A stretch of 64,000 bases of DNA, taken from the NCBI GenBank assembly GCA_014905635.1, contig JABVCE010000012.1, positions 434,001-498,000 on the forward strand. The letters are read 5' to 3'. The DNA is from Scenedesmus sp. PABB004 (taxonomy: Eukaryota). Below are positions 2,290-54,910 of this stretch, one piece after another. The notes under the pieces are model-generated. The model saw nothing but the letters and a program-made list of their open reading frames with translations. It was not told the origin of the DNA and searched no databases. Position numbers and translations under genes: made by a program. The first letter of the stretch is position 1. Every line of letters starts with the position of its first letter.

Positions 2290-3536
2290 GGCCCGGCCCC
2301 CGCCCAGGGGACGGCGCGGAGATGCCCCGCCCGCCGGGGCCGGCCCGGCCGCGGCGGCGGGTGTGCATGGGGTGGGTGGGGGACGGGGCCAGGACCGACC
2401 GACCAACGACGCCCGACGCATCGGGGCACGCGCGCCGCGCGGTGCGCGGTGCGCGCCGCGCGCGCGCGCCAGCGCAACGCACCATGCACGCAGCTGTGTA
2501 CATTCAACGCCAACACCACACGCGCTCACACTTGTACGCCGCGCGACGGCGGCGTGGGGGGCTGGGGACGGGCGACGCGGGGGCCGGGGGCGGGGTGGCC
2601 GCACTGCACACGTGAACAGCACCGCGGCGGGGCCTGGGCGGCGGGGCGGCGGCGCGTGCGCCGCCGCACATTATTACGCGCCCCGGTCCGCTTGCTTCGT
2701 AGTACTTTGTCTGGCGCCGTCCGCCTGGGCTGCTGCGGGGCTGCGAGAGAGTCGTGCGTGCGGGGGCGCCTGCGGCGTGCGTGCGTGGGCTCGCGCGGGC
2801 GCGCGGCGCCTGGCCTGGCCTGACCTCGCGGTGAGGGAGCGGTGCGTGCTGCACGCTTGCCCGCTGCGGCTGCAGTCGCACGCGCCGCATTCGCGTGCGC
2901 GACGCACAGCCGCTGCGCCCCCGCCGCGCGGGCCGAGCTGCAGCGCGGCACTGCACCGCCGCCGCGGTCGCGCCTGCCGGGCGCGCCGCGCGCACGGCTG
3001 GCTGGCTGTGGGAGCGTTTGTTGCGTGTTGGGAGGGAGGGCGCGGCGGCGGCCGGGGCGGCGCCGCGGGTCGGCGCCGGGGGCGGACGGTTGTGCCTGTC
3101 TTGTCTGTCTTGTCTTTTGATCGCACGCGCGCGCGACCGCTGGGGGGCAACCACCGCCATAGACCAACGACGGCGACACGGCGCGGCGGCCAGACCGGGC
3201 CGGGCGCGCGATGTACCATTCTTGCAACCGACCCGCACTGCGACCGTCGCCGCGCCCGCCCGGCAGCCGCGGCACGCGGGCGGCGGCGCAGGGCCCAGGG
3301 CGCAGGCGCCGCCCGGCCGGCTGCCCGCGCCACCGCCGAGGAGCCCCCCCCCCCCCCGGCTTGCGCGCCGCCCACCGCCCACAGCCGTACCTCAGCGCCC
3401 CTGCCGCCACGCCACAGGGCGGGGGGCGGGCGCCGCGCGCTGCTGCTGCTGCGCTCACGCCGCCCGCGCGCTCGCCCGCTGCTGCCGGTGCCCCGCCTGC
3501 TGCTCCCTGCTGACCTGCGGGCTGTCAGGTGGAACC

Positions 3537-4543
3537 ATGTCTGCTGCGCCGGCGGGCAAGCGGCGCGCCGGGCCGACCACGCGCGCGCGTGCGGCGGCCG
3601 CAGCAGCGGCAGGCGAGGCGCTGGCTGGGGTGGAGGCGGCGGCGAGGTGTGGGTCCGCTGCTGCTGCTGCTGGTGCTCTCTGGCTGGTGCTGCCCGGCGC
3701 CGCACGCGCCGCCCACAAGCCACCGCCGCCAGCAGCAGGCGCCGCCTGACCGCTCGCCGCCCGCCCCGCCCGCTGCGCCGCGCCGCCAGCAGCCTGTGGG
3801 GGGACCTGCCTGAGCCCCTCGTGCTCCGCGTCCTGAGCTTCCTGCCGCCGGCCCTGCGGGCGTGGGCTGCCAAGCTGGTCTGCAAGGCGGCGCGCGAGCG
3901 CTTCCGCGGCGCGACGGCCGTCTCGCTGCGCTGCCCCGAGCTGCCGCTGGAGGCGGTGCAGGCGGCGTGGCGGGCAGTGCGAGACGGGGCAAAGTGGCAG
4001 CAGCTGCGGCTGGCCAGGGCACGCGCGGCGTGCGGCGACGTGGCAGGGCTGGCCTGGCTGCGCGGCGCCGGCTGCGTCATGGGCCGCGTGTTTGACAGAG
4101 ACAGAGAGATTAATGTGGACGGCGTGTGCTGGACAGCAGCGTCGCACGGCCAACTCGCCGTGCTGGAGTGGGCGCGCGACCAGGGGCTGGACCTGGAGGG
4201 CGTGTGCCGCGGAGCAGCCTCTGGCGGGCACATGACGGTGCTGCGCTGGGCGCGCACGCAGTCGCCGCCGCTGCCCTGGACTGACGACCTCGTGTGCTGC
4301 GACGCCGCGGCGCGCGGCGACCTGGAGATGCTGCGCTGGTTGCGCACCCAAGCCCAGCCCGCGCCCTGGAGTGTCTGGACGTGCCAATATGTGGGAGCGC
4401 GTGGGCACCTGGAGGTGCTGCGCTGGCTGCGCGCCAACGGCTGCCTGTGGCGGCGCGACGCGTGCGAGCGCACGGCGGCACTCAAAGGCCATGAGGCCAT
4501 GGTCGCGTGGATCCAGGCGCAGCCCGCGACGCCGGACGACTGA
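3537..4543 (+). CDS. F-box-like/ankyrin-like repeat protein, cassette A (intact)
   Basis: Exons 3537-3646 and 3790-4543 (phase-2 GT-AG intron with CTGAC branch point). MSAAPAGKRRAGPTTRAR..., F-box-like LPEPLVLRVLSFLPP..LVCK, repeats of VCxxAAxxGxLxVLxWAR. Confidence 0.8.
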
Positions 4544-5403
4544 CTCTGACTCTGGCGGTTCCGATTAAATCAGCTCGGTTGCACTGGGATTAGGGCGAGG
4601 CGAGGCAGGCCCGTGACTGGGCACGCGTGCGTGCGGGGCGCTGCCTGCGGCATGGTGCGCGCGCGTGGCGAAGGAGAGGGAGAGGGAAGTTGGCGGCGGC
4701 GGGGCGGCGCATGCTGGCAACCGGCCGACCGCGCACGCAGCGCGCCTGGGCGGGTCGCGGTCCTGTGCCGTGCCCTAGCGGCGGCACGTCGCCGCGCCGC
4801 GCCCGCCGGGCAGCCGCGGCGCGGGGGCGGCGGTGCAGGGCCCAGGGCGCAGGCGCCCCCTTGCCCGCGCCGCCGCCGAGGAGCCCCCCCCCCCGGCTTG
4901 CGCGCCGCCCACCGCCCACAGCCGTACCTTAGCGCCCCTGCCACACACGCACACGCACGAGCGCCGGCCGCGCCGCCCACAGCTCCCGCACGCGCCGCGC
5001 GCCGCCGCCGCACCGCGCCCGCCCCCTCGCCCGCGGCGCACCCCTGGCCAGGCGGGGCGCGGACCTACGGGCGCCTGGTGACTAGCTCGTGCCGCCCAGC
5101 GCAGCGCCAGGCGAGCCGTGCGCGCGCGGGCAGGCGGTGAGCAGGCAGCGGCGGCGGGCGTGCAGCGCTGCGCGGCGCCCGCTGCGGGCGGCGGGGGTGC
5201 GCGGCGGGCGGGCGTGTGGCGTGGGCCGCCGGGCCTGCGCGCCCCGGGCGTCGCTGGCGGGCCCGCCGCCGCGCCGCCGCGCCGGGGCGGGGGCACGCGC
5301 CGCGCGCTGCTGCTGCCGCGCTCACGCCGCCCGCGCGCTCGCCCGCTGCTGCCGGTGCCCCGCCTGCTGCTCCCTGGTGGCCCGCAGGCTGCCAGGTGGA
5401 ACC

Positions 5404-6341
5404 ATGTCTGCTGCGCCGGCGAGCAAGCGGCTCGCCGGGCCGACCACGCGCGCGCAGGCGGCGGCCGCAGCGGCGGCAGGCGAGGCGCTGGCTGGGGCAG
5501 AGGCGGCGCCGAGGTGGGTCTGCTGCTGCCGCTGGTGCCCCTGGCTGCTGCTGCCTGGCGCCGCACGCGCTGCCCACGAGCCACCACCGACGGCAGCAGG
5601 CCCGGCCTGACTGCTCGCCGCCCGCCCAGCAGCCTGTGGCGGGACCTGCCCGAGCCCCTCGTGCTCCACGTCCTGAGCTTCCTGCCGCCGGCCCTGCAGG
5701 CGTGGGCTGCCAAGCTGGTCTGCAAGGCGGCGCGCGAGCGCTTTCGCAGCGCCAAGCGTGTCTCGCTGCGCTGCCCCGACCTGCCGCTGGCGGCGGCGCA
5801 GGAGGCGTGGCCGGCGGTGCAGGGTGACGGGCGGCAGCAGTCACGGCTGGCCAGGGCGCGTGCCGCGTGCGGCGACGTGGCGGGGCTGGCCTGGCTGCGC
5901 GGCGCGGGTTGCGACCTGCGCGGTGTGTGCTGGCAAGCAGCGGAGCACGGCCAGCTCGCCGTGCTGGAGTGGGCGCGCGGCGAGGGGCTGGAGCTGTGGA
6001 GCGTGTGCACGGGCGCAGCCGTGGGCGGGCACCTGGGCGTGCTGCACTGGGCGCGCGCGCAGACGCCGCCGCTGCCCTGGGGCAACGTCGTGTGCTTCTG
6101 GGCTGCGCAGCGCGGCGACGTGGAGATGCTGCGCTGGGCGCGCGCCCAGGCCGAGCCCGCGCCGTGGGATAGGGAGGTGTGCATGTTTGCGGCTGTGCAC
6201 GGGCACCTGGAGGTGCTGCGCTGGCTGCGCGCCAACGGCTGCCCGTGGTGGCGCGATTTGTGCGAGCGCACGGCGGCACGCGCGGGCCACGAGGCCGTGG
6301 TCGCGTGGATCCGGGCGCAGCCCGCGGCGCCGGACGACTGA
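5404..6341 (+). CDS. F-box-like/ankyrin-like repeat protein, cassette B (intact)
   Basis: Exons 5404-5513 and 5630-6341. Same architecture as A; ends AQPAAPDD*. Confidence 0.8.
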
Positions 6342-7213
6342 CTCTGACTCTGGCGGTTCCGATCAAATCAGCTCGGTCGCACTGGGATTAGGGCGAGGCG
6401 AGGCAGGCCGATGGCTGGGCGCGCGTGCGTGCGGGGGGGCGCTGCCTGCGGCCTGGTGCGCGCGTGCGCGTGTGGCGAGGGAGAGGGAGAGGGAAGTTGG
6501 CGGTGGGGAGGCAGCGCGTGCTGGCAACCGGCCGACTGCGCGCGCAGTGCAGCTGGGCGGGTTGCACTCCCGCGCGTCGCCCGCCGCTGGCGGTGGCGGC
6601 AGCACGTCGCCGCGCCGCGCCCGCCCGGCAGCGGCGGCACGCGGGCGGCGGCGCAGGGCGCAGGGCGCAGGCGCCGCCCGGCCGGCTGCCCGCGCCGCCG
6701 CCGAGGAGGCCCCGTGCGCGCGCCGCCCACAGCCGCCCACAGCCGCCGCCCGCAGCCCCCCTGCCACACGCACGCACAAGCACATTACACGCCGGCCGCG
6801 GCCCTCATCGCTCCTGCACGCACCGCGCCGCCGCCGCGCAGCGCCCGCCCCTGCCCGCGGCGCGCCCTGGCCAGGCGGGGCACGGCGCCTGGTGACTAGA
6901 TCGTGCCTCCCAGCGCAGCGCCAGGCGAGCCGCGCGCGCGGGCGGGCGGGGAGGGCAGCGGGGGGCGGGCAGCGCTGCGCGGCGCCCGCTGCGGGCGGCA
7001 GGGCCACCGGCGGTGCGCGGCGGGCAGGCGTGCGGCCTGGGCAGGGGAGTCTGCGCGCCCCTGGCGCCGCTGGCAGGCCCGCCGCCGCGCCGCCGCGCCG
7101 GGGCGGGGGCGGGCGCCGCCCGCTGCTGCTGCAGCGCTCACGCCGCCCGCGCGCTCGCCCGCTGCCGGCGCCGACTGCTGCTCCCTGGTGGCCCGCAGGC
7201 TGTCAGGTGGCAG

Positions 7214-8266
7214 CTGTCTGCTGCGCCGGCGGGCAAGCGGCACGCCGGGCCGACCACGGGCGCGCGGGCGGCTGCAGCGGCGGCAGCGGCAGGCGAGGCG
7301 CCTGGCGGCGCGGACGCGGCGCCGAGGTGGGTCCGTCGCTGCTGATGCTGCTGCTGGCCCACCCTGGCTGGTGCTGCCTGGCGCGGCACGCGCTGCCCAC
7401 AAGCCACCACCGCCGGCAGCGGCGGCGCCTGACCGCCGCCCGCCTGCCCGCCCCACGCGCCCGCCGCGCCCCGTGCCGCCAGCAGCCTGTGGGGGGACCT
7501 GCCCGAGCCGCTCGTGCTCCACGTCCTGAGCTTCCTGCCGCCGGCCCTGCAGGCGTGGGCTGCCAAGTTGGTCTGCAAGACGGCGCGCGAGCGCTTCCGC
7601 GGCGCCACGGTCGTCTCGCTGCGCTGCCCCGAGCTGCCGCTGGCGGCGGTGCGGGAGGCCTGGCGGCCGGTGCGGGGTGGCGATCCGTGGCAGCAGCTGC
7701 AGCTGGCCAGGGCGCGTGCGGCGTGCGGCGATGTGCCGGGGCTGGCCTGGCTGTGCGGCGCCGGCTGCGACATGCACAGTGGCGTGTGCTACGAAGCAGC
7801 GAAGCATGGCCATGTCCCTGTGCTGGAGTGGGCACGCGACCAGGGGCTGGACCTTCGGGACGTGTGCCACGACGCAGCTTATGGCGGCCAGCTGGGTGTG
7901 CTGCGCTGGGCGCGCGCGCAGACGCCGCCGGTGCCATGGGACGGCATGGAGTGCTGGCACGCTGCGGAGCGCGGCGACCTGGAGATGCTGCGCTGGGCGC
8001 GCGCCCAGGCCGAGCCCGCGCCGTGGAACAGCGAAGTGTGCTGCGTGGCCGCTGAGAACGGGCACCTGGAGGCGCTGCGCTGGCTGCGTGCCAACGGCTG
8101 CCCGTGGCAGCGCATGCAGTGCGAGGACGGGGCGTTTGTCCTTGGCCACGAGGCCGTGGTCGCGTGGATCCGAGCGCAGCCCGTGTCGCCGGACGACGGC
8201 CCTGTCTGGGACGACATCCGCAATGCCGCCATAAGAACAATGCAGTCACTCACTAACATACTCTGA
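7214..8266 (+). pseudogene. F-box-like/ankyrin-like repeat gene, cassette C; start codon ATG changed to CTG (pseudogene or non-AUG start)
   Basis: The position homologous to the ATG of other copies reads CTG TCT GCT GCG. Exons 7214-7326 and 7483-8266 are otherwise in frame, with an extended tail DDGPVWDDIRNAAIRTMQSLTNIL*. Confidence 0.6.
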
Positions 8267-8712
8267 ATCGCCGGGTGCTGGCGGCGGCGGCACGTCGCCG
8301 CGCCGCGCCCGGCAAGCCGCGCACCGTGCGGGCGGCGGTGCAGGGCGGCGGTGCAGGGCCCAGGGCCCAGGGTGCCGCCCGGCCGGCTGCCCGCGCTGCC
8401 GCCGAGGAGGCCGCCCGCGCGCTTGCAACTTCTCTGCCACCATCTCAGGGCTGAGCTGCCGCCGACACGGGCAGGACGCGCCGCGCGCGAGCAGCGCACG
8501 CGCCTCGCTCGCCCAGCGGCGGCGCGCGGAGGAGCGGCCGCAGGGGTGGGGCAGCTCGGGCGCGGCACTCGCCAGCTCTAGCAGGGGCACGCGGGGCGGG
8601 TCGCGCTGCAGGCTGCCCGCGGGGCTGGCGCCAGCAATCGCGACCAGCTGGCGGTTGCCGGCGCCGGGCGTCGCGCCCGGGCGGGCCCCGCTCACCGGTG
8701 AACGCGCTGCTG

Positions 8713-8961: not shown

Positions 8962-8992
<31 letters not shown>

Positions 8993-16552: not shown

Positions 16553-17239
16553 TGCCAGCCGCGGCCGGCCGCGGCAGCAGGCAGGTGCGCAGCGCCCGCC
16601 GCGGGCTCGCGCCGCGGGCCGCAGACAACTGCAGTGGCTGATGGCGGCGAGGCGAGAGGCGCGCCGCGAGCCACGCCCGGCACCGCTGCTGCTGCTGCGG
16701 CTGCCGCCGCGGGCGCGCTGCACCGCCGCCGCCGGCTGCGACGGGCCATCCCTGGCGTCGCCTGCGGGTGCTCCCGAGCCGTCCCTGGCGGCGGCGGCCG
16801 GCGGCGCGGCCGGCGCCGGCTGCAGGCGGCGGGCGAGCGCCGCGCGTGCGGTGGGCGGGGCGCGCTGGCGCCGCGCGCCCGTTTCCTGCCGCCCGGCGGC
16901 GGGCGGCGGGCGGGAGCAGGGAGTGGGGCCGACGTGGCGGGGCGCGCTCGGCGGGCACGACAGCGGCGCGACGCGCGCGTGCCAGAAGCGCGGCGGCGCA
17001 GCGCCCCGCGCCGCGCGCCCCGCTGCGCGCCGGCCTGTGGCCCTCCCCGCTGCCGCGCCGCCCTCCACACGCTCGTCCCGCTTGCCTGGTTGCGCTCCGC
17101 CACGCCTGCCGGTGCGCCCTCCCCGCCCCCGCAGCAGCCGGCCCGCCATCAGCAGCAGCAGCAGCCGGCGCCCACACAGCAGCAGGCGCGGGCGCTGCAG
17201 CGGGCGCGGGGCCTGATCCGTGAGGCGCGCGCGGGCGTG

Positions 17240-17665
17240 ATGACGGGCGTGTCGGTGCCGCGCAACTTCCGGCTGCTGGAGGAGCTGGAGAAGGGCGAGA
17301 AGGGCATCGGCGATGGCACCGTCTCCTACGGCATGGAGGACGCCGACGACATGCTCATGCGCCGCTGGACGGGGACCATCATCGGCCCCAGCAACAGCGT
17401 CCACGACGGCCGCATCTACACGCTCAAGATTTTCTGCGACAACGACTACCCCGAGCGCCCGCCCCAGGTGCGCTTCCAGAGCCGCGTCAACATGGACTGC
17501 GTCCTCCCCGACGGCCGCGTCGACGCGGGGCGCTTCGGCGTGCTGGGGCAGTGGCGGCGGGAGTACTCGATGGAGACGGTGCTGTCGGAGCTGCGCCGCC
17601 AGATGGCCTCCCCGCTCAACAAGAGGCAGCCGCAGCCGCCCGAGGGCACCATGTACCCGCAGTGA
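17240..17665 (+). CDS. UEV1: Ubiquitin-conjugating enzyme E2 variant (UEV1/MMS2), intronless
   Basis: [32 protein letters not shown]...WTGTIIGP...[18 protein letters not shown]...QPPEGTMY is the hallmark UEV sequence. Confidence 0.95.
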
Positions 17666-28306: not shown

Positions 28307-28397
<91 letters not shown>

Positions 28398-34940: not shown

Positions 34941-34980
34941 ACGGCAGTTGCCCGGCGCGCCCGCGCCCCGCGCCGCGCGG

Positions 34981-39143: not shown

Positions 39144-39190
<47 letters not shown>

Positions 39191-39222
39191 GGAGCCCCGG
39201 GCGCGCAGGCGCCGGGGTCCAT
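34981..39222 (-). CDS. Importin-beta family karyopherin (importin-13/transportin-3-like) with N-terminal polyQ
   Basis: MDPG...Q15 LAQLQAAVYSLY...ADAWLQAFRASPGAW..LL...AAFFAANAL (IBN_N-like), DWLELEAALY, HEAT-like helices, C-terminal RFKRVLKGFCGGKKKG. Multi-exon. Confidence 0.75.
39145..39189 (-). repeat. (CAG)15 coding microsatellite (polyQ)
   Basis: Direct reading. Confidence 0.9.
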
Positions 39223-39644: not shown

Positions 39645-40978
39645 CCGCGACCTCGGCGAGCCCCGAGGCTTTGGAGTAGAGCCGGTCCATCACGCCCAGG
39701 GGGGCCAGCTTGCCCAGCCACCACACAAAGCTGCTCAGCTTGCCGGCCACGTAGTGCGCCGGCGGCGGCCGCGGGCTCAGCGCCATGTCCACAAAGCCGC
39801 GCGCAAACTCGGCCGGCGGCGTGCCGCCGGCGATGCCCTCCGTGCGCTCGACCCAGTCGCGGCACTTGGCCGACGCGGCGTAGGGGCTGTCCTTGGCCAG
39901 GCAGTTGAGCCCGCTCGCGCGCGACTTGGCGTCCAGCTCCGTCGCGATGAAGCCTGACGCGCGCGTGTGCGCGTGCGTGTGGCGCGCGGGCGCGCGCGGG
40001 CGGTCTGGAGTCGGCGAGCGCGAGGGGCGCGGGGACGCGCGGCGCGGTGCCGTCGCGTGCGCGCGGCGCGGGGCGCGCACCCGGCGCGGCGTAGACCACA
40101 CGCACGCCGAGCGGCGCCAGCTCTGCGCGCAGCGCGTCGCTGACCGACATCAGCGCCGCCTTGCTCGACGAATATGCCGCCCAGAAGGGCTGCGCGGGGC
40201 GCGGCGGGCGGCGGCGGCGCGTGAGCTGGAGGCGCGTGGGCTCGAGGCGCGCGCGGCGTAGGTGCGTGGGCACGTGCGCAATGCGCGGGGGCGGGCAGCC
40301 ACGCTGCGCCGGCGCGCCTGTGACGTATAGCTCGCGATGCTTCCGACGTTTATGATCGTGCCTGCGACCGGGAGCAGGGCGGGGCGGGGCGGGGCCCGGG
40401 CGGGCGTGATGCCAAGCGCGCGGCCGGGCTCGCCCGAGCGCGCGGCGTGCGCAGAAAGCGCGGCGCGTGCGGCGCGCGCACCGCTGCCGCGCGCGACCAT
40501 GTGCGGCGCGGCGGCCTGCAGGACGTCGAGCGCGCCGAAGAAGTTCACCGCGAAGACGTGCTGGAAGTGCGCGCGCCCCGCCTCGGCGGCCGGGGCCTTG
40601 GCGAGCACGCCGGCGTTGTTGACCAGCACATCCAGCCGGCCCTCCGCCGCCATGACCGCGCCCTGCACAGCGCAGCGCAGCGCACGGGACGGTGGGACGC
40701 GCGGGCGTGGCCAGCGCGGCGGGGGGGGGGGGGGGGGGGGGGGGGGGGGCGCGGGCGCGCGCGCGCGCGCGCACCAGCGCCGCGGCGACAGAGTCGGGCT
40801 GCGTGACGTCCAGCTGCAGCAGGCGGCACCCGAGCGGCTCGAGGCCGGCCATGGCGGCGAGCGAGCGCGCGGTCGCGAACACGACGCAGCCGCGCCGAGC
40901 GAACTCGGCGGCCAGGTGCCAGCCGATGCCGCCCGACGAGCAGCCGGTGATGAGCACGACCGCCGGCTGCGGCGCCAT
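39631..40978 (-). CDS. Short-chain dehydrogenase/reductase (classical SDR, 1-acyl-DHAP reductase-like)
   Basis: VLITGCSSGGIG, FATAR, LQLDVT, LDVLVNNAG, INVGS, catalytic YSSSK, GFIAT. Multi-exon. Confidence 0.9.
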
Positions 40979-41477
40979 GGCGGCAGCTGCAGGGCCGCGG
41001 GCGGTCGGCGCAGCGGCGGCGGCCACTCGTTTGCGGCACGCGACGTGGCGGGCTGCGTCGTGGCTGGTGACGTGGGAGTTCCGCTTGAGAGCACAAGGCG
41101 CGCGGCGTGGAGGCAATTGGGTGCTCCTCCGCGCCGGCGCGGCGCGCAAAAGCGCTCGTGACGGCGCTGCTGTCACGTGTGGTCCCTCGCGCTGCCGCGA
41201 GCGTTCGCCCCGCACGAGAGCCCGCTCACGCCGTTATCGGAAGCTCCGCAGCGCCTCTGCGTCGCAGGCGACGCAGAGGTTGCGGCCATCTACGCGCTGC
41301 TGCTCCGCGCTCGGGGACCGACCGATCCCCGCGCCCCGGCTGGCACAGGTCCAAGCCCGGCCCGAGCGCGCCGGCGGCGCCGCCGCCCGCCGCCGCGCGG
41401 CAGCGGCAGCAGCGGCGGCGGCGGTTGGGCGCGCCGCTGCTGCGCTCGCCGCCGCTCGCGCGCGGGCCGCGCTGGCG

Positions 41478-44421
41478 GTGGAGCAGCGTCCCGGGACCTT
41501 CTCGCCCCGCGGCGAGCGTGGCAGCTTTGGGCTGGACGGCGGCGAGGGCAAGGGCCGCAAGCAGCGCGCCGCGAGGGGGCTGGCCGCCGGCCTCGGCCGG
41601 CTGCGGCGGCCCAGCCCCCTCGCGGCGGGCGCGGCGCTGGTGGTGGGCCTGCTGCTGCTGGTGGTGCTGGCGGCGCTCGCCGCGGTGCGGGGGCGGCCAA
41701 AGGTGCGGGCAGCGGCGGCTCGCGCGGCGGCGGCCAGCTCAGCGACGGCGCCAGCGAGCAGCGGCGGGCGCGACGGGCGGCCGCGGCTGGGCGCCAAGCG
41801 AGCCCGCACGCCGCAGATCGACCCGCGGCTGTCGGCGTCGCTGCCCGACGCGCCGGACGAGTGCTCCGCGGCGCTGCGCAGCAAGATCGCCTGGGGCGTG
41901 GCCACGTCGGCGTACCAGGTGCGCCGCGGCGCCCGCCCGCCCGCGTGCCCGCGCCCCGCCGCGCCCCCTCGCCGCGCCGCCGCGCACCACGTCGCCGCCG
42001 CCGCCGCCGCCACGCGCAGGTCGAGGGCGCCGCGTCGGAGGGCGGGCGCAGCCCGAGCATCTGGGACGCCTTCTCGGCGCGCCCCGGCGCCGTCGCGGGC
42101 AACGCGACCGGGTCGGTCGCGGCGGACCACTACCATCACTTCCGGGACGACATCCGCTTGATGGTCGCGCTCGGCGTCAAGCACTACAGGCGCGGCGGCG
42201 GCCGCGGCGGCGGCGGCGGCAGGGTGAAGGGTTGAGGGGGGGGGGGTCGGCGCCGAGGGTTTTGGGGGCGTGGCGGCAGCGGCGGTTGCGTGAGCTGCGG
42301 GTGTCGGCGGCGGCGCGCCCACGCGCCGCGCGCCGCCGCGCGCCGCCGCGCGCCGCCGCGCGGCAGGCTGTCGCTGTCGTGGACCCGCGTGCTGCCGGGC
42401 GCGGGGCGCGGCAGCGAGCCGAGCGGCGCTGGGCTGCGCTTCTACCGCCGCCTGCTGCGCGAGCTGCACGCCGCCGGCATCACGCCCGTCGTCACGCTCT
42501 GCCACATGGACCTGCCGCAGGCGCTGCAGGCGCGCGCCGCCCGCGCCGCCACCCGCGCCGCCACCCGCGCCGCCACCCGCGCCGCCCGCGCCGACACCCG
42601 CGCGCCGGCACCCGCCCGCCTCCCCCCTGCGCCCTCCTCCCCTCCCCGCTGCGCCCCATGCCCCGCCCCTGCGCCCCGCGCCGCCCTCCGCTCCCCGCTT
42701 GCAGGACGCGTACGGCGGCGCGCTGGACCCGCAGCTCGCAGACGACTTCCTGTACTATGCGGATACTGTCTTTGCGGCGCTCGGGGGCTATGTGAAGCAC
42801 TGGCTCACCTTCAGCGAGCCCATGGCGATGTGCCAGCTCGGCTACGGCGTCGGCGCGTACGCGCCGGGGCTCGCGCGCGGCGCGGCGGGGCAGTATGCGT
42901 GCGGGCACGCGCTGCTGCTCGCGCACGGCCGCGCGGCGCAGCTCTACCGGCAGAAGTACGGCCAGGCGCAGGGCGGGCGCGTGAGCATCGCGCTCGCCGC
43001 GCACTGGGGGCTGCCCTACGACCCCGCCAGCACGGCGGGTGCGCGCCGCCGCCGCACGCTGCGCGCCGCGCGCCGCGCGCCTCGCTTGCCCCTCGCTTGC
43101 CTGCCCGTCCCTCTCCGCCGCGTGCGACACCGCCTCCGCGCCGGCGCGAATCAACGCTCACAAACACACGCCGCCCGCCGCCGCCGCGGCGTCGTGCCCC
43201 AGACGTCAACGCGACCGAGCTCTACATGACCTTCCAGCTCGGGTGGCTCGCCGACCCGCTGTTCTTCGGCGACTACCCCGAGGCCATGCGGCGCAGCCAG
43301 CCGTCCCTGCCGCGGCTCAAGCCGTCCGAGCGGGCGTTGCTCACGGGCAGCGTCGACTTTGTGGCCATCAACTACTACACCAGCCACTTTGTGCGCGCGC
43401 CGCCGCCGGGCGCGCCGCGCGACCAGGTGCGCGCCGGCGCGGCAGAGGCGCGGCGGCGGCGCGGCGCGCGGGGCGCGCGGCGCGGCGGGCCCGCCGCCGC
43501 CGGCCACCGGCCGCGCCGACCCCGCGCCCCGCTCGCTGGCGCACGTTGCGACGCACGCGCCGCCACGCGCGCCAGCTGTACGAGGAGTCGCTGACGGACC
43601 ACGCCGGCGCGTACCCGGGGCCGCCGAGCGACACGTTCTGGCAGTTCACCGCCCCGGGCGGCCTGCGGTCGACGCTCGCGTGGATTGGGCGGCGCTACCA
43701 GCGCCCCGAGGTGTGGGTGACAGAGAACGGCGTCGCGTCGCCGGGCGAGGGCCGGCTGGAGCGGCGCGACGCGCTCAAGGACCGGCACCGCCTCGACTTT
43801 TACCGGTGCGGGCTCGTGTCTGTGCGGGCGCGCGGGCGCGTGTGTGCGTGCGTGTGTTGGGAGGGGATGACCGGCACGCCTCGCGCGCCCAGCCCACGCG
43901 CCGCCGCCCGCCCCCTCCGCCGCGCGCCCCCGCGCGCCAGGTCGAGCCTCGACGCGCTGTGCGCGGCGGTCACGCGCGACAACGCCAACCTGGCGGCCTA
44001 CTTTGCGTGGAGCCTGCTCGACGGCTTTGAGTGGTCCGACGGCTACGGCCCGCGCTACGGCCTCGTGCTCGTCGACCGGGCGAGCCCCCGCCTGGCGCGC
44101 TACCCCAAGCTCTCGGCCTACTGGCTCGCCACGCACTTCTTCAGGTGCGTGTTTTGTGGGTGTTTTAGACAGAGAGAATGTGCGTGTGTGTGCGTGTGTG
44201 TGTGTGGGTGTGTGTGTGGGTGTGTGGGTGTGGGTGTGGGTGTGGGTGTGGGTGGGGCGGGGGAGGGCGCGGCGCAGCTGCACGGGGCAGGCGGCGCTGC
44301 GCGGCGGCGCGACGCGCGGACGCCGCGCCGTCCGCGCCGCAGGTACGCGCCGGACAGCATCGCGTGCCTGGAGATCCGCAGCTGCCGCGCGCAGCGCAGC
44401 TCGCTGCTGCCCGTGCGGTAG
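41478..44421 (+). CDS. Glycoside hydrolase family 1 (beta-glucosidase-like) with N-terminal transmembrane anchor; start uncertain
   Basis: [78 protein letters not shown] across multiple exons. Hydrophobic [18 protein letters not shown] upstream. The given start is a candidate GTG. Confidence 0.85.
44179..44252. repeat. (GT)n/(GGGTGT)n intronic microsatellite
   Basis: Direct reading. A similar (GT/GA) tract lies at about 49649-49712 and a poly-G run at about 40720-40749. Confidence 0.85.
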
Positions 44422-45167
44422 CGGCGGCGGCGGCGGCGCGCCGCGCTCAGGAGCAGCGCTCGGGGGAGCGGCCGATTCTTTGCACATAGGGCGGCGCGCC
44501 GGGCTGAGACACTGCCCGCTGCGCCGGAAGTGTTCATGCAACGTCTGCCACGCTGGCTGGGCGGCGGCGACCGGCGGTGCAGGGCCCAGGGCGCAGGCGC
44601 CGCCCGGCCGGCTGCCCGCCGCCGCCGAGGAGCCCCCCCCCCCCCCCGCGTGCCGCCCACAGCTGCCCACAGCCGCCTCCCCCCCTGCCACACACGCACA
44701 AGCGCCGGCTGCACCGCCCACAGCGCCCGCACGCACCGCGCCGCCGCCGCCCAGCCCCCGCCCCCGCCCACGGCGCGCCCCTGGCCAGGCGGGGCGCGGA
44801 TCCGCGCCCCGTCCGGACCTGCGGGCGCCTGGTGACTAGGCCGTGCCGCCCAGCGCAGCGCCAGGCGAGCCGGGCGCGCGGGCAGGCGGGGAGGGCAGCA
44901 GCGGCGGCGGGCGGGCCGCGCCGCGCGGCGCCCGCTGCGGGCGGCGGGGGCTGCGGCGGTGCGCGGCGAGCGGGCGTGTGGCCTGGGCCGCCGGGCCTGC
45001 GCGCCCCGGGCGCCGCTGGCAGGCCCGCCGCCGCGCCGCCGCGCCGGGGCGGGGGCGGGCGCCGCGCGCTGCTGCTGCTGCGCTCACGCCGCCCGCGCGC
45101 TCGCCCGCTGCTGCCAGTGCTCCGCCTGCTGCTCCCTGGTGGCCCGCAGGCTGTCAGAGGCGGTGCC

Positions 45168-46149
45168 ATGTCTGCTGCGCCGGCGGGCAAGCGGCGCGAG
45201 GCGGCGGCGCGCGGCGAGGAGGCGAGGTGGGCGCGCAGCCGTTGGCCAGGCGGGCGCTGAGCACGGGCCAGCAGCCGCAGCGCGCGCCGCCCCACCGCTG
45301 GCCCGCCGCCGTGCCCCCCCCCCCCCCAGCAGCCCGCCGCCGGACCTGCCCGAGCCGCTCGTGCTGCACGTCCTGGGCTTCCTGCCGCCGGCCCTGCGGG
45401 CGTGGACCGCCAGGCTGGTGTGCAAGGCGGCGCGCGAGCGCTTCCGCGGCGCCACGGTCGTCTCGCTGCGCTGCCCCGAGCTGCCGCTGGCGGCGGTGCA
45501 GGAGGCGTGGCGGGCGGTGCAGGGTGCCGGGTTAACCCTGCAGCGGCCGCAGCTGATCGGGGCGCGCGCGGCGTGCGGCGACGTGGCGGGGCTGGCCTGG
45601 CTGCACTGGGCCGGCTGCGGCATGGGCGGCGTGTGCTTGCAAGCAGCGGAGCACGGCCAGCTCGCCGTGCTGGAGTGGGCGCGCGGCGAAGGGCTGGACC
45701 TAAAGGAAGTTTGCAAAGCAGCAGCATGGCACGGGCAGCTCGCCGTGCTGGAGTGGGCGCGCGACCAGGGGCTGGACCTGCGGGACGTGTGCTGGGCAGC
45801 AGCCGGGGGCGGGCACCTGGATGTGCTGCACTGGGCGCGCGCGCAGGCGCCGCCGCTGCCGTGGGGCGACAACGTGTGCTCCTGGGCTGCACGGCGCGGC
45901 GACCTTGAGATGCTGCGCTGGGCGCGCGCCCAGGCCGAGCCCGCGCCGTGGGGCGAGCACGTGTGCTGCGTGGCGGCTCAGTTTGGGCAGCTGGAGGTGC
46001 TGCGCTGGCTGCGCGCACACGGCTGCCCCTGGTGGCGCGGCGAGTGCGAGCGCAAGGCGGCACTCTACGGCCGCGTGGCCGTGGTCGCGTGGGTCCGGGC
46101 GCAGCCCGCGTCGCCGGACGATGGCCCTATCGTTGGCTTTTTTGGCTGA
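45168..46149 (+). CDS. F-box-like/ankyrin-like repeat protein, cassette H (intact, one extra repeat)
   Basis: Exons 45168-45226 and 45330-46149. Two consecutive GQLAVLEWAR repeats; tail DDGPIVGFFG*. Confidence 0.8.
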
Positions 46150-47014
46150 AGCTCGGACGCGGACCTCGATTGGGGCGAGGCAAGGCGGGCCCGTGGCTGG
46201 GCGCGCGTGCGTGCGCGGGGCGCTGCCTGCGGCCTGGTGCGCGCGTGCGCGCGTGGCGAGGAAGAGGGAGAGGGAAGTTGGCGGCGGCGAGGCGGCGCGT
46301 GCTGGCAACCGGCCAACCGCGCACACAGGGTGGCTGGACGGCCTGCGCTCCCGCGCCGTCGCTGGGCACTGACAGCTGCGGCACGTCGCCGCGCCGCGCC
46401 GCGCCCGCCCGGCAGCGGGGGCACGTGGGCGGCGGGCCCAGGGCGCAGGGCCCAGGCGCCGCCCGGCCGGCTGCCCGCGCCGCCGCCGAGGAGGCCCCCC
46501 ACGCGCGCCGCCCCGCTGCCCACAACCGCCACCCTCAGCGCCTCCCTGCCACACGCACACGCGCACAAGCGCCCGCCGCGGCCCTCACAGCTCCCGCACG
46601 CACCGCGCCGCCGCCGCCCAGCGCCCGCCCCCGCCCGCGGCGCGCCCCTGGCCAGACGCGGCGCGCCCCTGCGGGCGCCTGACGGTCGGGCCGTGCCGCC
46701 CAGCGCAGCGCCAGGCGAGCCGGGCGCGCGGGCAGGCGGGGAGGGCAGCAGCAGCGGCAGGCGGGCCGCGCTGCGCGGCGCCCGCTGCGGGCGGCGGGGG
46801 CACCGACGGTGCGCGACGGGCGGGCGTGTGGCGTGGGCCGCCGGGCCTGCGCGCCTCGGGCGTCGCTGGCGGGCCCGCCGCCGCGCCGCCGCGCCGGGGG
46901 GGCCCGGGCGCCGCGCTCTGCTGCTGCTGCGCTCACGCCGCCCGCGCGCTCGCCCGCTGCTGCCGGTGCCCCGCCTGCTGCTCGCAGGTGGCCCGCAGGC
47001 TGTCAGGTGGCGTC

Positions 47015-47995
47015 ATGGCCTCGCTGATAGAGCATTCGCTCAGCTGTCTGACGCTGGAGGGCGCACCGAGGTGCGTGTGCTGCTGATGTTGACGCCCCTA
47101 GCCGGCACCCCTGGCTGTTTTGAGCCTGGGCGCGCGGCACTGGCGACGAGGCGAGGTGTTGCCCCATGGCTGCTGCTGCCTGGCGCTGCACGTGCTGCCC
47201 GCAAGCCACCGCCGCCGGCAGCAGGCGCCGCCTGACCGCTCGCCCTGCCCGCCCTGCTCGCCCCGCACGCCCGCCGCGCCCGCCCGCGCCGCCAGCAGCC
47301 CGCTGCCAGAGCTGCCCGAGCCGCTCGTGCTGCACGTCCTGAGCTTCCTGCCACCGGCCCTGCAGGCGTGGGCTGCCAAGCTGGTCTGCAGGGTGGCGCG
47401 TGAGCGCTTCCGTGGCGCCACGGTCGTCTCGCTGCGCTGCCCCGAGCTGCCGCTGGCGGCGGTGCAGGAGGCCTGGCGGGCGGTGGGGATTGATGAGGAG
47501 CAGCAGCGCCAGCTGTCAGCGGCGCGCGCGGCATCCGCCGACGTGGCGGGGCTGGCCTGGCTGCGCGGCGCCGGCTGCGACATGTGGGCCGCATGCTCGG
47601 CAGCAGCGGAGCACGGCCACCTCGCCGTGCTGGAGTGGGCGCGCGACCAGGGGCTCGACCCAGGGGACGTGTGCTGGGCAGCAGCTCAGGGCGGGCGGCT
47701 GGATGTGCTGCGCTGGGCGCGCGCGCAGGCGCCGCCGCTGCCGTGGGGCGACAACGTGTGCTCCTGGGCTGCGCAGCACGGCGACCTGGAGATGCTGCGC
47801 TGGGCGCGCGCCCAGGCCGAGCCCGCGCCGTGGGACCGGGACGTGTGCTGGCGGGCGGCTGAGTACGGGCAGCTGGAGGCGCTGCGCTGGCTGCGCGCAA
47901 ACGGCTGCCCCTGGTGGCGCGGCGAGTGCGAGTTCCTGGCAGCCAGCAACAGCCACCAGGCCGTGGTCGTGTGGATCCGGGCACAGCCTGAGTGA
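47015..47995 (+). CDS. F-box-like/ankyrin-like repeat protein, cassette I (intact, alternative exon 1)
   Basis: Exons 47015-47070 (MASLIEHSLSCLTLEGAP) and 47296-47995. Confidence 0.8.
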
Positions 47996-48626
47996 GCTGG
48001 CGTCGGCTTTGGCGGCGCGTGGCGAGGGAGAGGGAGAGGGAAGTTGGCGGCGGGGCAGCGCGCTGGCAACCGGCACAGCCCAATTGAGTCGCCGTCGGCT
48101 TCTGCCGCGACCGGCGGTACGGGCCCAGGGCGCAGGCGTGGGGCACGTGCCGCCCGTTGCATCGCGGCTGTTGCACTGCAGGCGAGAAAGCAGTGCAGTG
48201 CCGTGGCGGCGCCGGGTCGCATGTCGGCGCGCTGAGGGCCCGCCGTCGAAAAACAGCGCGCGCCGCTGCGGGGGCCATCACTGGACGACCCCCCTCTCCG
48301 TCGCCCCTCGCTCCCTCGCCGCCCGGTGGAACGCCGGCCCGCGCGCCGTGCGCGGCGCCGCCCCTCCCCCAACACAACGTGCGCGCGGCGCGCGCCGCCG
48401 CCGCGCTGCCCCTCTGCGGGGCTGCCGCGCGGCGGCACGGCGGCAGCAGGGGCCGCCGCTGCGGCCGCTCGCGCGCCGCTCGCTCGCGCCGTGGCGGGCC
48501 ACGCGGCGGCCTCACCCAACGGGCGGCCGCATCATCAGGTCTCTTCATCAGGAGGCCTCATCCGCAGGCCTGATCAGGCCTCATATCCATCAGGGGGGCC
48601 CCATCAGGCCTCACCAGGCGGCCCCA

Positions 48627-51192
48627 TCAGGCCGCGGGCTTGCGGGCAAGGAAGAAGAACAGCGGCGTGAAGGTGCCTGGCGCGCGGCGGGCGCAGCGCG
48701 CGGCGCGGCGCACCGGCGTGAGCAGCGCGGCGGCCCGTGCGCCGCCCGCGGCAGCGGCGGCGCGGCCACGGCGCGCGCGGGGCGGGGCGGCCCGCCGCGC
48801 CGCCGCGCCGCCGCACCGGTCTTGCCGCCGGCGACGAGGCCGTCCGCCGCGCGCTCGAGCATGCTCGCGACCTCGAGGCTGCCCTTGGGCGCGAGGCCGA
48901 GGCGCTCCAGCGCCTTGACCATCACGTGCGTCACCCGCCGGCCCAGCTTGGTCGTGCGGAAGTCTGGCGGGCACAGGGAGGGCGGCGGGCGGCGCGCGCG
49001 GCGCGGCGGCACGTCGGCCGGCGCGGGTGCGGCAGCGCGGCGGCTCGCCGCCGGCGCGGCGGCCGCTTCGCGCGGCGGCGGCGGGCACGGTGGCTCGCGC
49101 GGCGCCCGGCCTCACTCTGCAGCCGCGTCCAGTTGTCGGGGTCGACCGGGTCCCACCAGGGGATGTCGGCGGTCGTCGCGAGGTCGCAGCTGTCCAGCAG
49201 CTCAAAGCCCGCCGCCTTCAGCGCCTCCAGCGTCTGCGCCGTCGTCCTGCGGCGGCGCGCCCGCGGCGTCGGCGGCGCGGGTCGCTCGGCGGCGCGCCCC
49301 TGCCGCCGCGCCCGCCACCCGCGCCCCGCCCCCCGCTGCAGGCCGCCCGTCCGCCTCTCACCCTCCCCGCCTCGCGCACCCCCCCCCCTCCCTACCCCCT
49401 GCAGCTGCTTCCTCTGTCCCCCGCACACGCGACCACAACACTACTCCACCACACCACTACTCCGCACGCACCGCACGTCGGGCAGGCCGTTGCCGAGCTC
49501 AATCTCGGCCATAATGCTCCGGTGCGCCGCGTTGCCCGGGTCGTACGCGTCCGTCGCGCACCACTCGTACCCGGCAAAGCACTGCCCCGGCTTGAGCACG
49601 CGCAGGATCTCCTTGTAGCACCCCACCTGCGCGCGCGCGCGTGAGCTTTGTGTGAGCTTTGTGTGTGAGTGTGAGTGTGTGTGTGTGTGAGTGTGAGTGT
49701 GTGTGTGTGTGTGGGGGGGGGGGACCAACGCGGCCGCGGCGCGCACCTGGTCGGGCGCGTGGCACGTCGCGTCGATCTGCGGCGACGCGCGGCGGCGGCG
49801 CGGGCGTCGGCGCGCCGCCGCTGCGCACGCTCCCGCGCGCGCTCCCGCGCCGCAGCGCCCGCGCGGCGCCCGCGCCGCCGCCGCCGCCGCCGCCGCGCCG
49901 TGCCTGGTAGACTGCGTCGAAGCTCCCGTCCTCAAAGGGCATGGCCATGAAGTCGGCCTTGACAAACTTGGACAGCCCGTCGAGGCTGCGCCCCGTGCGG
50001 CCGTTGTGGTAGAGCGCGCGGCTGATCTGGTACGCGTTGTTGTTCACGCCTGGGCGGAGGCGGCGCGGCGGGGGGCGCGAGCCCGGTGCGGCGTGACGCG
50101 GCGGGGGCGTGGCGGGCGCGGCGGGCACCGGCCGGCGGCCGGCGGCCGCGGCGCGCGCTCGTGCAGCGCGCGCGCTCGTGCGGGGCACCGAACAGCTGCG
50201 GCGCGCCGCGCACCCGTGACGTGCGCGCCCGAGAACAGCGCGATCTCGCGCAGCGGCCCGCCGATGCCGCAGCCGACGTCGAGGCACGTGTCGCCTGGCG
50301 CACGACCGCGGCGCGACGCGGCGGCGGAGGGCGCGCGGCGGCGTCAGAGGCGGCGGCGGCGGCGGCGGCGGCGGCGCCGCCAGCTGCCGGCCCCGGCGCC
50401 GCGCCGCGCCGCTGCGGCCGGTGCGGCCAGCCCCACGGCGGCGGCGCCGCACCAGGCTTGAGGCCGAGGCGCAGCGCGAGGTAGTGCTCGTGGCGGCGGA
50501 TGCTCTCCACGTGGCTCTCGTGCTTCAGGCGGTGCGCAAAATGGAACGACGTGCCCCACCCTGCGCGCCGCACCCGCGCCGCCGCCGGCGCGGGGCGCGC
50601 GTGGGCCGCCGCACCTGCCGCCAGCGGCCGTGCGCGCTGTGCGAGCGCACGCCCCGGCTGCGCCGCCGCCGCGCTCACCGTACTCGTAGAAGCTCGTGGC
50701 CAGGTCGTAGTACTTGTTGACCATGTCGGCGTACTGCTTCTTGCGCGCCTCCACATCGCCGCCGTGCGTGGTGTGGTATTTCTGCGCGCGCGGGCGCGCG
50801 GCGGCAGCGGCGGCGGCACGGCGGGTGGCGCCGCTGCGCGCGGCGCGCCTGGCGAGCCCGGGGCTTGCGCGGCCCTCTGTCCTCGCCACGACGCGCTGCC
50901 GCTGGCCCCGTCCCGGCGGCGCGCCAGGCGCGTGGGCGACGCTGATGGCGCGGCGCGCCCTCCCCCCTCCATCGCCGCGCTGGCGCCGCCAGCGACCGCA
51001 GGCGCGGGCCGTCGTGGACGGCGCCGCTGCGGGCTGGGCGTATCGGCATCGCCGGGCGCCCCGCGGGGCCTGTGGCGCGCGAGCGGGTTGGGGCTGACCC
51101 GCGCGCACCTCGTAGGAGTCGATGGAGTCGGCGATTCTGTCAGCCGACTGGCTGCTGATGTTGGGCGTGAGCATGGCCGCCGGCGTCGTCAT
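48627..51192 (-). CDS. SMT1: Sterol C24-methyltransferase (cycloartenol SMT / ERG6 family)
   Basis: [94 protein letters not shown]. Multi-exon. Confidence 0.95.
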
Positions 51193-52941: not shown

Positions 52942-52962
52942 CCTCTGGCCGGGTTAAGGGGC

Positions 52963-53220: not shown

Positions 53221-53296
53221 GCGGGCCGCGAGGGGCTGTGGAGCGGGGAGGGCGGGCCCCCCGCGGCCGCAGCTGTCCTTTCAAATCACGTCGAGT

Positions 53297-54306
53297 TCAA
53301 AAATCAAACAAATAATCAAGTCCAGGGCCGTCGTCTGCCGCCGCGGGCTGCGCCCGGATCCACGCGACCACGACCTCGTGCCCGCTGCGTGCCGCCGCGT
53401 ACTCGCACTCGCCGCGCCACCACGGGCAGCCGTTGGCGCGCAGCCAGCGCAGCGCCTCCAGGTGCCCGTGCGCTGCCGCCCCCCTGCACGCGCTCTTGCC
53501 CCACGGCGCGGGCTCGGCCTGGGCGCGCGCCCAGCGCAGCATCTCCAGGTCGCCGCGCTGAGCAGCGTAGTAGCAAACCCCATAATCTGAGCCACCCCAC
53601 GTCAGCGGCGGCGCCTGCGCGCGCGCCCAGCGCAGCACACCCAGCTGGCCGACCATGGATGCGTCCTCGCACACGCGCTCCAGGTCCAGCCCCTGGTCGC
53701 GCGCCCACTCCAGCACGGCGAGCTGGCCGTGCTCCGCTGCAGCGTAGCACACGCCGCCCATGCCGCAGCCGGCGCCGCGCAGCCAGGCCAGCCCCGCCAC
53801 GTCGCCGCACGCGCCGCGCGCGCTGGCCAGCCGCAGCTGCTGCCAGGTTGCCCCGTGTCGCGCCGCCCACCAGGCCTCCTGGACCGCCGCGAGCGGCAGC
53901 TCGGGGCAGCGCACCGAGACGACCGTGGCGCCGCGGAAGCGCTCGCGCGCGGCCTTGCAGACCAGCCTGGCGGCCCACGCCTGCAGGGCCGGCGGCAGGA
54001 AGCTCAGGACGTGGAGCACGAGGGGCTCGGGCAGCTCCGGCAGCAGGGCGCTGGCTCGGCGGGGCGGGCGGGGCGGCGGGGCGGGCGGCGAGCGGTCAGG
54101 CGGCGCTGCTGCCGGCGGTGGCGGCTTGTGGGCAGCGCATGCGGCGCCAGGCAGAAGCAGCAGCCAGCGGGCACCAGCAGCAGCCAGCGGACCCACCTCG
54201 GCGCCGCCTCCGCGCAGCCGGGCGCGTCGCCTGCGGCGGCTCCGGCCGCGGCGCGCGCGCGCGTGGTCGGCCCGGCGCGCCGCTTGCCCGCCGGCGCAGC
54301 AGACAT
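53297..54306 (-). CDS. F-box-like/ankyrin-like repeat protein, cassette J (intact); cassette extends to about 54883
   Basis: Exons 54306-54197 and 54050-53297; tail DDGPGLDYLFDF*. Boundary motif at 54857-54883. Confidence 0.8.
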
Positions 54307-54910
54307 GGTGCAGCCTGACAGCCTGTGGGCCACCAGGGAGCAGCAGGCGGGGCACCGGCAGCAGCGGCGAGCGCGCGGGCGGCGTGAGCGTGGCAGCAGC
54401 AGCGGGCGGCGCGCGTCCCCGCCCCAGCGTGTCCGCGCGGCGGCGGGCCTGCCAGCGGCGCCCGGGGCACGCAGGCCCGGGTGATCACCCAACACGCCCG
54501 CCCGCTGCGCACCGCCGGTGCCCGCGCCGCCCGCAGCGGGCGCCGCGCAGCGCGGCCCGCCCGCTGGCGCTGCCCTCCCTGCCTGCCCGCGCGCACGGCT
54601 CGCCTGGCGCTGCTCGCGGCGGCACGGCCTGGTCACCAGGCGCCCGCAGGTCCGTGCCCCGCCTGGCCAGGGGCGCGCCACGGGCGGGGACGGGCGCTGC
54701 GCGGCGGCGGCGCGGTGCGTGCGGCCGCTGTGGGCGGCCTGCCGGCGCTTGTGTGCGTGTGTGGCAGGGGCGTTGAGGGCGGCGGCTGTGGGCGGCGGGG
54801 CGGCGCGCGCGCAGGGGGCCTCCTCGGCGGCGGCGCGGGCAGCCGGCCGGGCGCAGCGCCTGCGCCCTGCGCCCTGCACCGCCCGCCCGCCCGCTGCCGA
54901 GCTGCACAGC

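Follow-up and report, generated by a model that had tools for sequence, protein, structure and literature searches.

A clustered F-box-like/ankyrin gene family, probably of substrate receptors, with signatures of gene conversion in a GC-rich green alga

How does a family of repeated genes come to lie scattered among the ordinary genes of a green alga, and what might it be for? The question is raised by a stretch of 64,000 nucleotides from Scenedesmus sp. PABB004 (contig JABVCE010000012.1, positions 434,001 to 498,000), called here the window, which carries ten copies, A to J, of a unit made of a leader, a short exon 1, an intron and an exon 2 encoding an F-box-like head followed by ankyrin repeats. 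The explanation favoured here, with a probability of about 0.7, is a lineage-specific family in a GC-rich chlorophycean alga, evolving by birth and death and driven by gene conversion, whose products would be probable substrate receptors of SKP1–cullin–F-box (SCF) ligases.

A BLASTN search of the window with unit B returned ten full or near-full copies at seven loci, on both strands and within 52 kb, at coordinates within a few bases of those given in the first-pass annotation. The units measure 1.25–2.0 kb and are 78–86% identical to unit B, with about 92% between B and F over the core. Their summed length of ~17.1 kb represents 27% of the 64 kb, in keeping with the earlier estimate of roughly a quarter. 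A MAFFT alignment that included the flanks delimits a shared core of ~1.5–1.6 kb. Unit A (3248–4622), unit B (4541–6420, including upstream array spacer, with its core at 4832–6342) and unit C (6339–8197) form a tandem array on the forward strand, in which A comes first. Unit H (44572–46202) and unit I (46168–48074) form a second forward-strand array, a pair headed by H. The solo units D (18229–19813), E (25463–26717), F (29614–31603), G (33086–34940) and J (53330–54897) all lie on the reverse strand.

The gene structure is conserved along the alignment, in which the ATG, a splice donor (GAG/GTGGGT), a branch-like CTGAC and an acceptor (CCAG/C) recur. Intact spliced models were obtained for six copies, with predicted proteins of 251–292 amino acids. 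On the forward strand these are A (ATG 3537, donor 3647, exon 2 from 3790, stop 4543; 287 amino acids), B (ATG 5404, donor 5514, exon 2 from 5630, stop 6341; 273 amino acids), H (ATG 45168, donor 45227, exon 2 from 45330, stop 46149; 292 amino acids, with a shortened exon 1 and one extra ankyrin repeat) and I (ATG 47015, donor 47071, exon 2 from 47296, stop 47995; 251 amino acids, with an alternative exon 1 and an upstream donor). On the reverse strand they are G (ATG 34355, donor 34293, exon 2 from 34161, stop 33447; 258 amino acids, with an alternative exon 1) and J (ATG 54306, donor 54196, exon 2 from 54050, stop 53297; 287 amino acids, the coding end lying 33 nt beyond the DNA homology). 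Exon 1 comprises 110, 110, 62, 59, 56 and 110 nt in A, B, G, H, I and J, respectively, which places the intron in phase 2 in all six models; the intron itself, with GT..AG ends, spans 103–225 nt. The short exon 1, the phase-2 intron and the F-box-like/ankyrin exon described in the first-pass annotation were therefore confirmed by the alignment and the gene models.

Donors are retained in all ten copies (in I, a nearby one) and acceptors in nine, and within the units only exon 2 shows a three-base periodicity of G+C. Two PABB004 gene models, P0003 and P0006, join the homologous exons at the same point; these junctions support the intron, but as computed annotation themselves. The non-coding parts of the units are 76–88% identical between copies, so that the whole unit, leader and intron included, has been copied at the DNA level, as had been supposed. 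A processed (retro-copied) gene was rejected because every one of the ten copies has kept both its intron and its leader.

Two unrelated types of exon 1 occur in the family, and units G (34294–34355, reverse strand) and I (47015–47070, forward strand) differ in this respect from the other units. In one type the encoded N-terminus is basic and rich in Ala and Arg (MSAAPAGKRRAGPTTRAR...); in the other, shared with PABB004 protein P0002, it is acidic (MASAVEHSLSGL...). The two types might entail different localisation.

Exon 2 encodes the head and five or six ankyrin repeats of 26–29 residues each. In the three copies scanned, the Pfam family Ank_4 scored 34.6, 37.5 and 42.2 bits against a cut-off of 22.7. 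An AlphaFold2 model of the unit B exon-2 product, built from a 44-sequence alignment, reached a predicted local distance difference test (pLDDT) score of 86.8, with the repeats above 90 and folded as paired helices. The best matches of this model in the PDB, searched with Foldseek, were designed ankyrin repeat proteins (DARPins), ankyrin-B, espin and GLP repeats (E 5.4e-4 to 1e-3, template modelling score 0.5–0.6). An ankyrin fold is firmly predicted for the unit proteins, in which the repeats after the head make up a separate C-terminal protein-interaction domain.

The head, comprising the residues around LPEPLVLHVLSFLPP...VCK, follows the pattern LP..L.L.VL..LP...VCK, which aligns with the F-boxes of FBXO2, D3/MAX2 and FBXO42. 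A profile built from nine heads retrieved F-box proteins in seven of its ten PDB matches: FBXO2 (E 0.00099, aligned on F-box residues 51–97), D3/MAX2 (four sequence entries), FBXO42 and FBH1; the three remaining rows were chance matches to DNA polymerase III chi. Against 1.84 billion representatives, the same profile found 49 proteins at E ≤0.001. Three Tetrabaena socialis proteins (E 1.9e-9 to 2.9e-8) were matched exactly on their Pfam F-box segments (38.7–93.1 bits), a Logan protein was matched at E 9.4e-14 and reaches both Pfam F-box cut-offs, and Tetradesmus obliquus proteins named F-box or ankyrin in UniRef were matched as well. Because of this transitive homology through the Pfam-certified Tetrabaena F-boxes, the head is taken, on sequence grounds, as a divergent but real F-box. 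In the full-length model it is drawn with three helices (residues 8–15, 20–30 and 32–40), at a low pLDDT of 52–65. Of the domains proposed earlier, the ankyrin repeats are backed by Pfam, AlphaFold2 and Foldseek evidence and the F-box-like head by Pfam and profile evidence.

Exon 2 has kept its reading frame: all 10 of the insertions and deletions (indels) that separate the eight copies with an open exon 2 come in threes, as against 19 of 48 for the leader and 7 of 21 for the intron. The amino-acid alignment has 232 columns; 108 of them do not vary, and in 31 the eight copies show four to six different residues. When the copies are lined up on the AA..G motif, the variable columns recur at the repeat period: they are the second residue ahead of the VC motif, the second beyond the C, and the first or second beyond AA. 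The overall ratio of nonsynonymous to synonymous change (dN/dS) is 0.92. In the 30 codons of the class defined by this register, dN is 0.80 and dS 0.35, giving a dN/dS of 2.30 (bootstrap 95% interval 1.43–3.88), and this dN was reached by none of 10000 random 30-codon sets and none of 5000 random periodic registers. The remaining 116 repeat codons stand at 0.62 and the head at 0.71. In the predicted model, the variable positions map to helix 1 and to the loop that precedes it, and helix 2 does not vary. The loop/helix-1 region of ankyrin repeats is the target-binding face, randomised in DARPin libraries. The variable binder repertoire suggested at first reading finds its counterpart in these periodic hypervariable positions, with a dN/dS of 2.3 against 0.62 in the scaffold.

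Exchange between copies has also left its traces. A tract at the end of exon 2 in unit B (6118–6341, forward strand) is identical over 224 nt to unit F (29934–30157), on the opposite strand and 24 kb away; overall these two copies reach 92% identity, but only 88% over the leader's 5′ half. A second tract, of 112 nt in exon 1 and the intron, is identical between B (5466–5577, forward strand) and E (25956–26067), two copies with an overall identity of 82%. The median of the longest identical run over the 45 pairs of units is 49 nt. Moreover, the nearest neighbour of a copy switches between segments, and one repeat module is common to A and G alone. Long identical tracts in distant inverted copies, combined with shifting neighbours, are the signature of gene conversion or recombination between paralogues.

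Several results weigh against the receptor reading, and they concern the head, the state of the copies, the statistics of selection and the leader. Regarding the head, the Pfam families PF12937 or PF00646 match eight of the nine heads, with the best scores at 22.9 bits against 24.3 and 20.0 against 20.5, and the F-box cut-off is reached by no single window copy. A model of the head alone reached pLDDT 81.8 with the second and third helices fused into one. In a Foldseek search with this model the best E was 4.3, with nothing at ≤0.001 and weak rows for D3 and FBXO42 at E 7–10; VIA-align, run with the head alone against 48,161 chains, gave no Z ≥5 and listed no F-box chain. The check by HMMER and AlphaFold was divided: the ankyrin part stood (Ank_4 and the model), and so did the F-box by profile and transitive homology, and the searches with the head alone gave no significant structural neighbour.

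Scores just below the Pfam cut-offs and blank fold searches of the head speak for a first alternative, in which the proteins would be ankyrin binders with a family-specific helical head that no longer binds SKP1, working outside SCF, for example as scaffolds or inhibitors. This alternative also draws on conservation that extends beyond the 45-residue F-box, with an invariant LRCP.LPL in the nine window heads, and on the ~90-residue head module shared by the relatives. It is countered by the alignment of the head pattern with the F-boxes of FBXO2, D3/MAX2 and FBXO42, and of the head with the Pfam-certified F-boxes of the Tetrabaena relatives. A head detached from SKP1 is considered unlikely, and it is the likeliest of the competing explanations.

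As for the state of the copies, six of the ten are intact and four (C, D, E and F) are damaged. Unit C has lost its ATG by a 1-nt deletion and keeps exon 2 open at 7484–8263. Unit D, a probable pseudogene, carries a frameshift in the ankyrin exon near 18510–18522. Unit E is a pseudogene in which a deletion removes the splice acceptor and the start of the F-box, and its ankyrin exon ends after ~127 codons with the 3′ half gone, which agrees with its earlier description as a reduced, deleted copy. Unit F has one extra base in exon 1, and its frame is open only with the intron retained (30914–29937, 326 amino acids). Moreover, the dN/dS values of 0.92 overall, 0.62 in the scaffold and 0.71 in the head amount to weak constraint, and part of the family may be drifting. 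The dN/dS of 2.30 in the hypervariable register is partly post hoc, the register having been picked after the alignment was seen and one of its offsets mis-set; the pairwise counts ignore shared ancestry, and gene conversion breaks the independence they assume.

Such figures lend themselves to a second alternative, a decaying and mostly non-functional repeat family under neutral drift, the frames of which high GC keeps open by chance. Besides the overall dN/dS and the lesions in four of ten copies, it can appeal to the rarity of stop codons in DNA of 80% GC, where many long open reading frames (ORFs) arise in all frames, and to an exact look-up in the protein collection, in which none of six window ORFs, including the unspliced F and G frames, was present. 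However, the indels of exon 2 are all in frame (10 of 10), against 40% in the leader and 33% in the intron, the variability of sites is strongly bimodal and periodic, the three-base periodicity of G+C stops at the limits of exon 2, and splice donors and acceptors have been kept almost throughout (10 of 10 and 9 of 10). Wholesale decay of the family is highly doubtful in consequence of this evidence.

The leader raises a difficulty of another kind. It measures 559–607 nt in nine copies (for example, 4832–5403 on the forward strand in unit B and 34356–34937 on the reverse strand in unit G) and 289 nt in A, where ~250 nt are gone. Its mean identity of 88% exceeds that of exon 2 (83%), the intron (76%) and silent sites (dS 0.21), and plain duplication and drift does not explain this conservation, which is strongest 70–100 nt upstream of the ATG. 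No coding signal was detected in the leader, with no phase bias of variable sites (0.39, 0.34 and 0.33) and indels in threes in 19 of 48 cases. Rfam returned no family at gathering score in the window. Nor was there support for a conserved RNA fold of the leader, the RNAalifold covariation term being unfavourable (+9.08) and compensatory change being limited to 5 of 195 pairs. The leader probably holds the promoter and the 5′ untranslated region (5′UTR), and a CAG ~15 nt before the ATG could be the end of a 5′UTR intron. Its sameness may possibly come from constraint or from preferential homogenisation.

The closest relatives of the units are at least 14 gene models of Scenedesmus sp. PABB004. 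Twelve models with the head lie on one contig of 1,235,393 bp (nine of the ten looked up, in addition to P0002, P0003 and P0006), with locus tags, where given, between HT031_003954 and HT031_004038, and two further models are on other contigs. Two of these paralogues are 72–75% identical to B, and the window's own copies 68–75% (F 93%). A word search with the head only returned PABB004 proteins exclusively (four of four), and no PABB004 protein is identical to a window copy. Outside the window, the PABB004 models P0122–P0130, of 445–1510 residues, join F-box/ankyrin sequence to FHA, WD40, RRP36, lipase/rhodanese or CBAH domains; the names they carry, HET-E1, SLC4A1AP and CM1 among them, have been transferred. 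They are very probably fused annotations of neighbouring genes, which implies that the units are wedged between ordinary genes there too and give trouble to annotation. Taken with the absence of the window copies from the protein collection, the fused models indicate that the family is probably under-annotated in PABB004, the closest annotated genome.

In other organisms, proteins of Tetrabaena socialis, Tetradesmus obliquus, Chloropicon roscoffensis, Balamuthia and Acanthamoeba share with the units the order of F-box first and ankyrin afterwards, as well as the CxxAAxxGHLxVLxWxR..GCPW flavour of the repeat. The two chlorophycean algae among them, Tetrabaena and Tetradesmus, also share the extended head, and head identity to the algal and amoebal F-box/ankyrin proteins is only 30–46%. 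The earlier remark that this repeat type occurs in giant DNA viruses and algae holds, since it was seen in other algae, in amoebae and in a Cedratvirus protein.

The setting of the units is that of a cellular genome. The G+C content is 77–83% and uniform over the whole 64-kb window, in units and intervening host genes alike. The PABB004 genome comprises 39.8 Mb with 78.5% GC, 7,092 genes and 1.31% repeats, according to a comparative study (PMC12571836). A sliding test of GC by codon position found many short blocks with clear coding periodicity in the window, as expected of multi-exon eukaryotic genes. A Pfam scan of 81 ORFs selected by periodicity, among which no SKP1 was found, shows that ordinary cellular multi-exon genes separate the repeated units. 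These include a TSP1-domain protein (~9.5–13 kb), a ubiquitin-conjugating enzyme E2 (UQ_con, E 2.3e-14; 17012–17662, forward strand), a short-chain dehydrogenase (SDR, 40049–41008), a family-1 glycosidase (GH1) in four exon blocks (41957–44199), a sterol methyltransferase (48707–49066) and an EF-hand protein (55188–56206). The placement of the units among housekeeping genes was therefore borne out, with the E2 enzyme, GH1, SDR, sterol methyltransferase and EF-hand genes between them.

Some features of this setting are recorded in their own right. The UQ_con gene is convergent to damaged unit D, ~570 nt from the end of that unit, and apart from the repeated units it is the only ubiquitin-system gene among the 81 ORFs. 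The third-position GC of the ankyrin exons (0.89–0.90) is slightly lower than that of long host-like ORFs (0.94–0.96). Microsatellites rich in TG/GGGTG occur at 44147–44284 (~300 nt upstream of unit H), at 25128–25199 (just downstream of unit E) and at 49626–49737 (near the sterol methyltransferase gene). Long runs of CGG and CTG trinucleotides are found at 28240–28430, 31822–32137 and 39125–39214, in or near coding-like blocks between units.

A third alternative derives the units from a nucleocytoplasmic large DNA virus, endogenised or acting as donor, whose effector genes would have stayed in the algal genome or been put to use there. A Cedratvirus ankyrin protein (E 5.6e-32, 37% identity) does have this repeat type, as do amoebae known as hosts of giant viruses, and Tetrabaena, which holds relatives of the units, is known for endogenous giant-virus DNA. 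Against such an origin stand the uniform GC of units and host genes, introns of spliceosomal type with donor, branch-like CTGAC and acceptor, and the multi-exon host genes between units. No viral hallmark family was found among the 81 ORFs, and a single-protein query of a viral contig collection gave no close relative. Moreover, Tetradesmus, which likewise belongs to the Scenedesmaceae, has the extended head too, and this fits vertical descent. Viral effectors are a distinctly improbable source of the units, but the repeat type may have a viral origin in its deep history.

It remains to be considered how the copies came to their seven loci. The 5′ edge of the core is sharp and lies at a G-rich segment. 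A 22-nt motif at this edge occurs 13 times in the window, against 0.56 expected by chance, and 13 occurrences were reached in none of 100 shuffles; ten of the sites coincide with the start of a unit, and the other three closely follow C, F and G. Arrays A-B-C and H-I have a period of ~1.85 kb, in which the so-called trailer is a spacer of ~370 nt running to the next array unit. The first-pass annotation had most copies keeping a conserved trailer; the full trailer is present in only five of ten (A, B, F, G and H). Solo copies F and G still hold the spacer and the first 35–65 nt of a next unit (~35 nt at ~29614–29647 in F and ~65 nt at ~33086–33150 in G). C and I each close with part of the 5′ segment of a further unit, at 8284–8426 on the forward strand for C, where it marks the end of the array, and at 48015–48074 for I, and D, E and J end near the stop codon. 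With these array-spacer remnants beside them, the solo copies resemble pieces cut from a tandem array.

The cassettes had been described as spreading, and these remnants fit tandem and segmental duplication. A non-autonomous, transposon-like cassette that moved the gene about and landed between host genes could account for copies on both strands at seven loci within 52 kb, for the start of D, E, G and H (solo or array-first) within 3 nt of the same unit B position (q286–289) and for the same 5′ segment as a direct repeat behind C, F and G, but it is the least credible explanation of all, given that terminal inverted repeats exceeded the shuffled 95th percentile in none of five units, that no transposase, integrase or reverse transcriptase family was found among the 81 ORFs, that the 3′ ends are ragged (at the stop codon, within the spacer, or 35–140 nt into the next unit), that the pieces repeated at the 3′ ends belong to the beginning of the following array unit, as cutting from a tandem array would leave them, and that the copies found cluster locally, in the window and on one PABB004 contig, with two further models on other contigs.

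The favoured explanation, a conversion-driven family of probable SCF receptors, can be put as a sequence of steps. The family would grow by tandem duplication with a period of ~1.85 kb, and local segmental duplication and inversion would move pieces of the arrays into neighbouring intergenic DNA. The copies would then undergo birth and death, leaving the six intact and four damaged ones seen here, and would swap segments by gene conversion. Selection may retain the frame and the repeat scaffold and favour change at the loop and inner-helix positions of the binding face. The head would dock on SKP1, and each paralogue could serve as an SCF receptor with its own target, foreign or self.

A bolder version makes the family a repertoire for non-self recognition, a bank of SCF receptors in which positive selection and the swapping of repeat modules between copies would diversify the ankyrin faces. 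If so, the 0.6 kb upstream would perhaps be kept alike in order to coordinate or restrict which copies are expressed, and the system would have counterparts in fungi, plants and jawless fish, with their repeat-based immune receptors. This defence-like role, raised as a possibility in the first-pass annotation, is a long shot.

Several known systems combine similar elements. Legionella pneumophila AnkB, likewise small, has its F-box at the N-terminus and ankyrin repeats behind it, and it docks on host SKP1. It is a single bacterial effector and not a diversified family, and no close sequence relation to the units is detectable. The F-box/ankyrin/MORN families of pandoraviruses and other giant viruses, and the ankyrin/PRANC proteins of poxviruses, form adaptor-like arrays with a conserved head, diverging repeats and exchange. 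In those families viral genes act on the host, whereas the units described here are cellular DNA with introns and host neighbours. In poxvirus ankyrin proteins the F-box-like part is C-terminal. A poxvirus-type ankyrin/PRANC protein was rejected as an identification of the units because the F-box-like head is N-terminal in all copies.

Fungal NOD-like receptors carry hypervariable ankyrin, TPR or WD repeats that are reshuffled between copies. Like these receptors and the DARPins, the units combine an invariant scaffold with a few hypervariable positions in the loop and inner helix. The difference lies in the F-box-like head, in place of NACHT/NB-ARC, and in the shorter repeats of 26–29 residues. 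A limited literature library yielded no description of the algal and amoebal relatives as a hypervariable clustered family, nor of any such algal family.

The nearest parallel in evolutionary behaviour is offered by the expanded F-box families of plants and nematodes. In plants, a similar F-box expansion is accompanied by a fast-evolving target domain and by the idea that foreign proteins are recognised. F-box gene expansions were reportedly treated by Thomas in Genome Research in 2006. In Caenorhabditis, a published account describes a species-specific F-box expansion, mostly by tandem duplication, with birth-and-death turnover, a constrained N-terminal F-box and a C-terminal target domain with dN/dS peaks above 1, and the receptors are proposed there to recognise foreign proteins (PMC8665587). 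Such lineage-specific expansions, in Caenorhabditis and plants, serve here as the comparison system.

The algal family shares with these families its tandem expansion, its birth-and-death turnover and a head more constrained than the target domain. It differs in that the target domain is ankyrin, instead of FTH/FBA, kelch or leucine-rich repeats, and in that the host is a green alga. Furthermore, the whole unit, including ~0.6 kb upstream, is homogenised by conversion, and the copies number tens, not hundreds. In nematodes and plants, fast-evolving F-box families are regarded as arsenals for recognising targets, and a clear case in a unicellular green alga would extend this idea to algae. The system would also be tractable: the genes are short, the ankyrin binder is small and easy to model, the variable positions are defined and the conversion tracts can be seen. 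What the window adds to the known expansions is a compact, resolved algal example in which periodic hypervariability of the ankyrin face, conversion tracts and a strongly conserved upstream region occur together.

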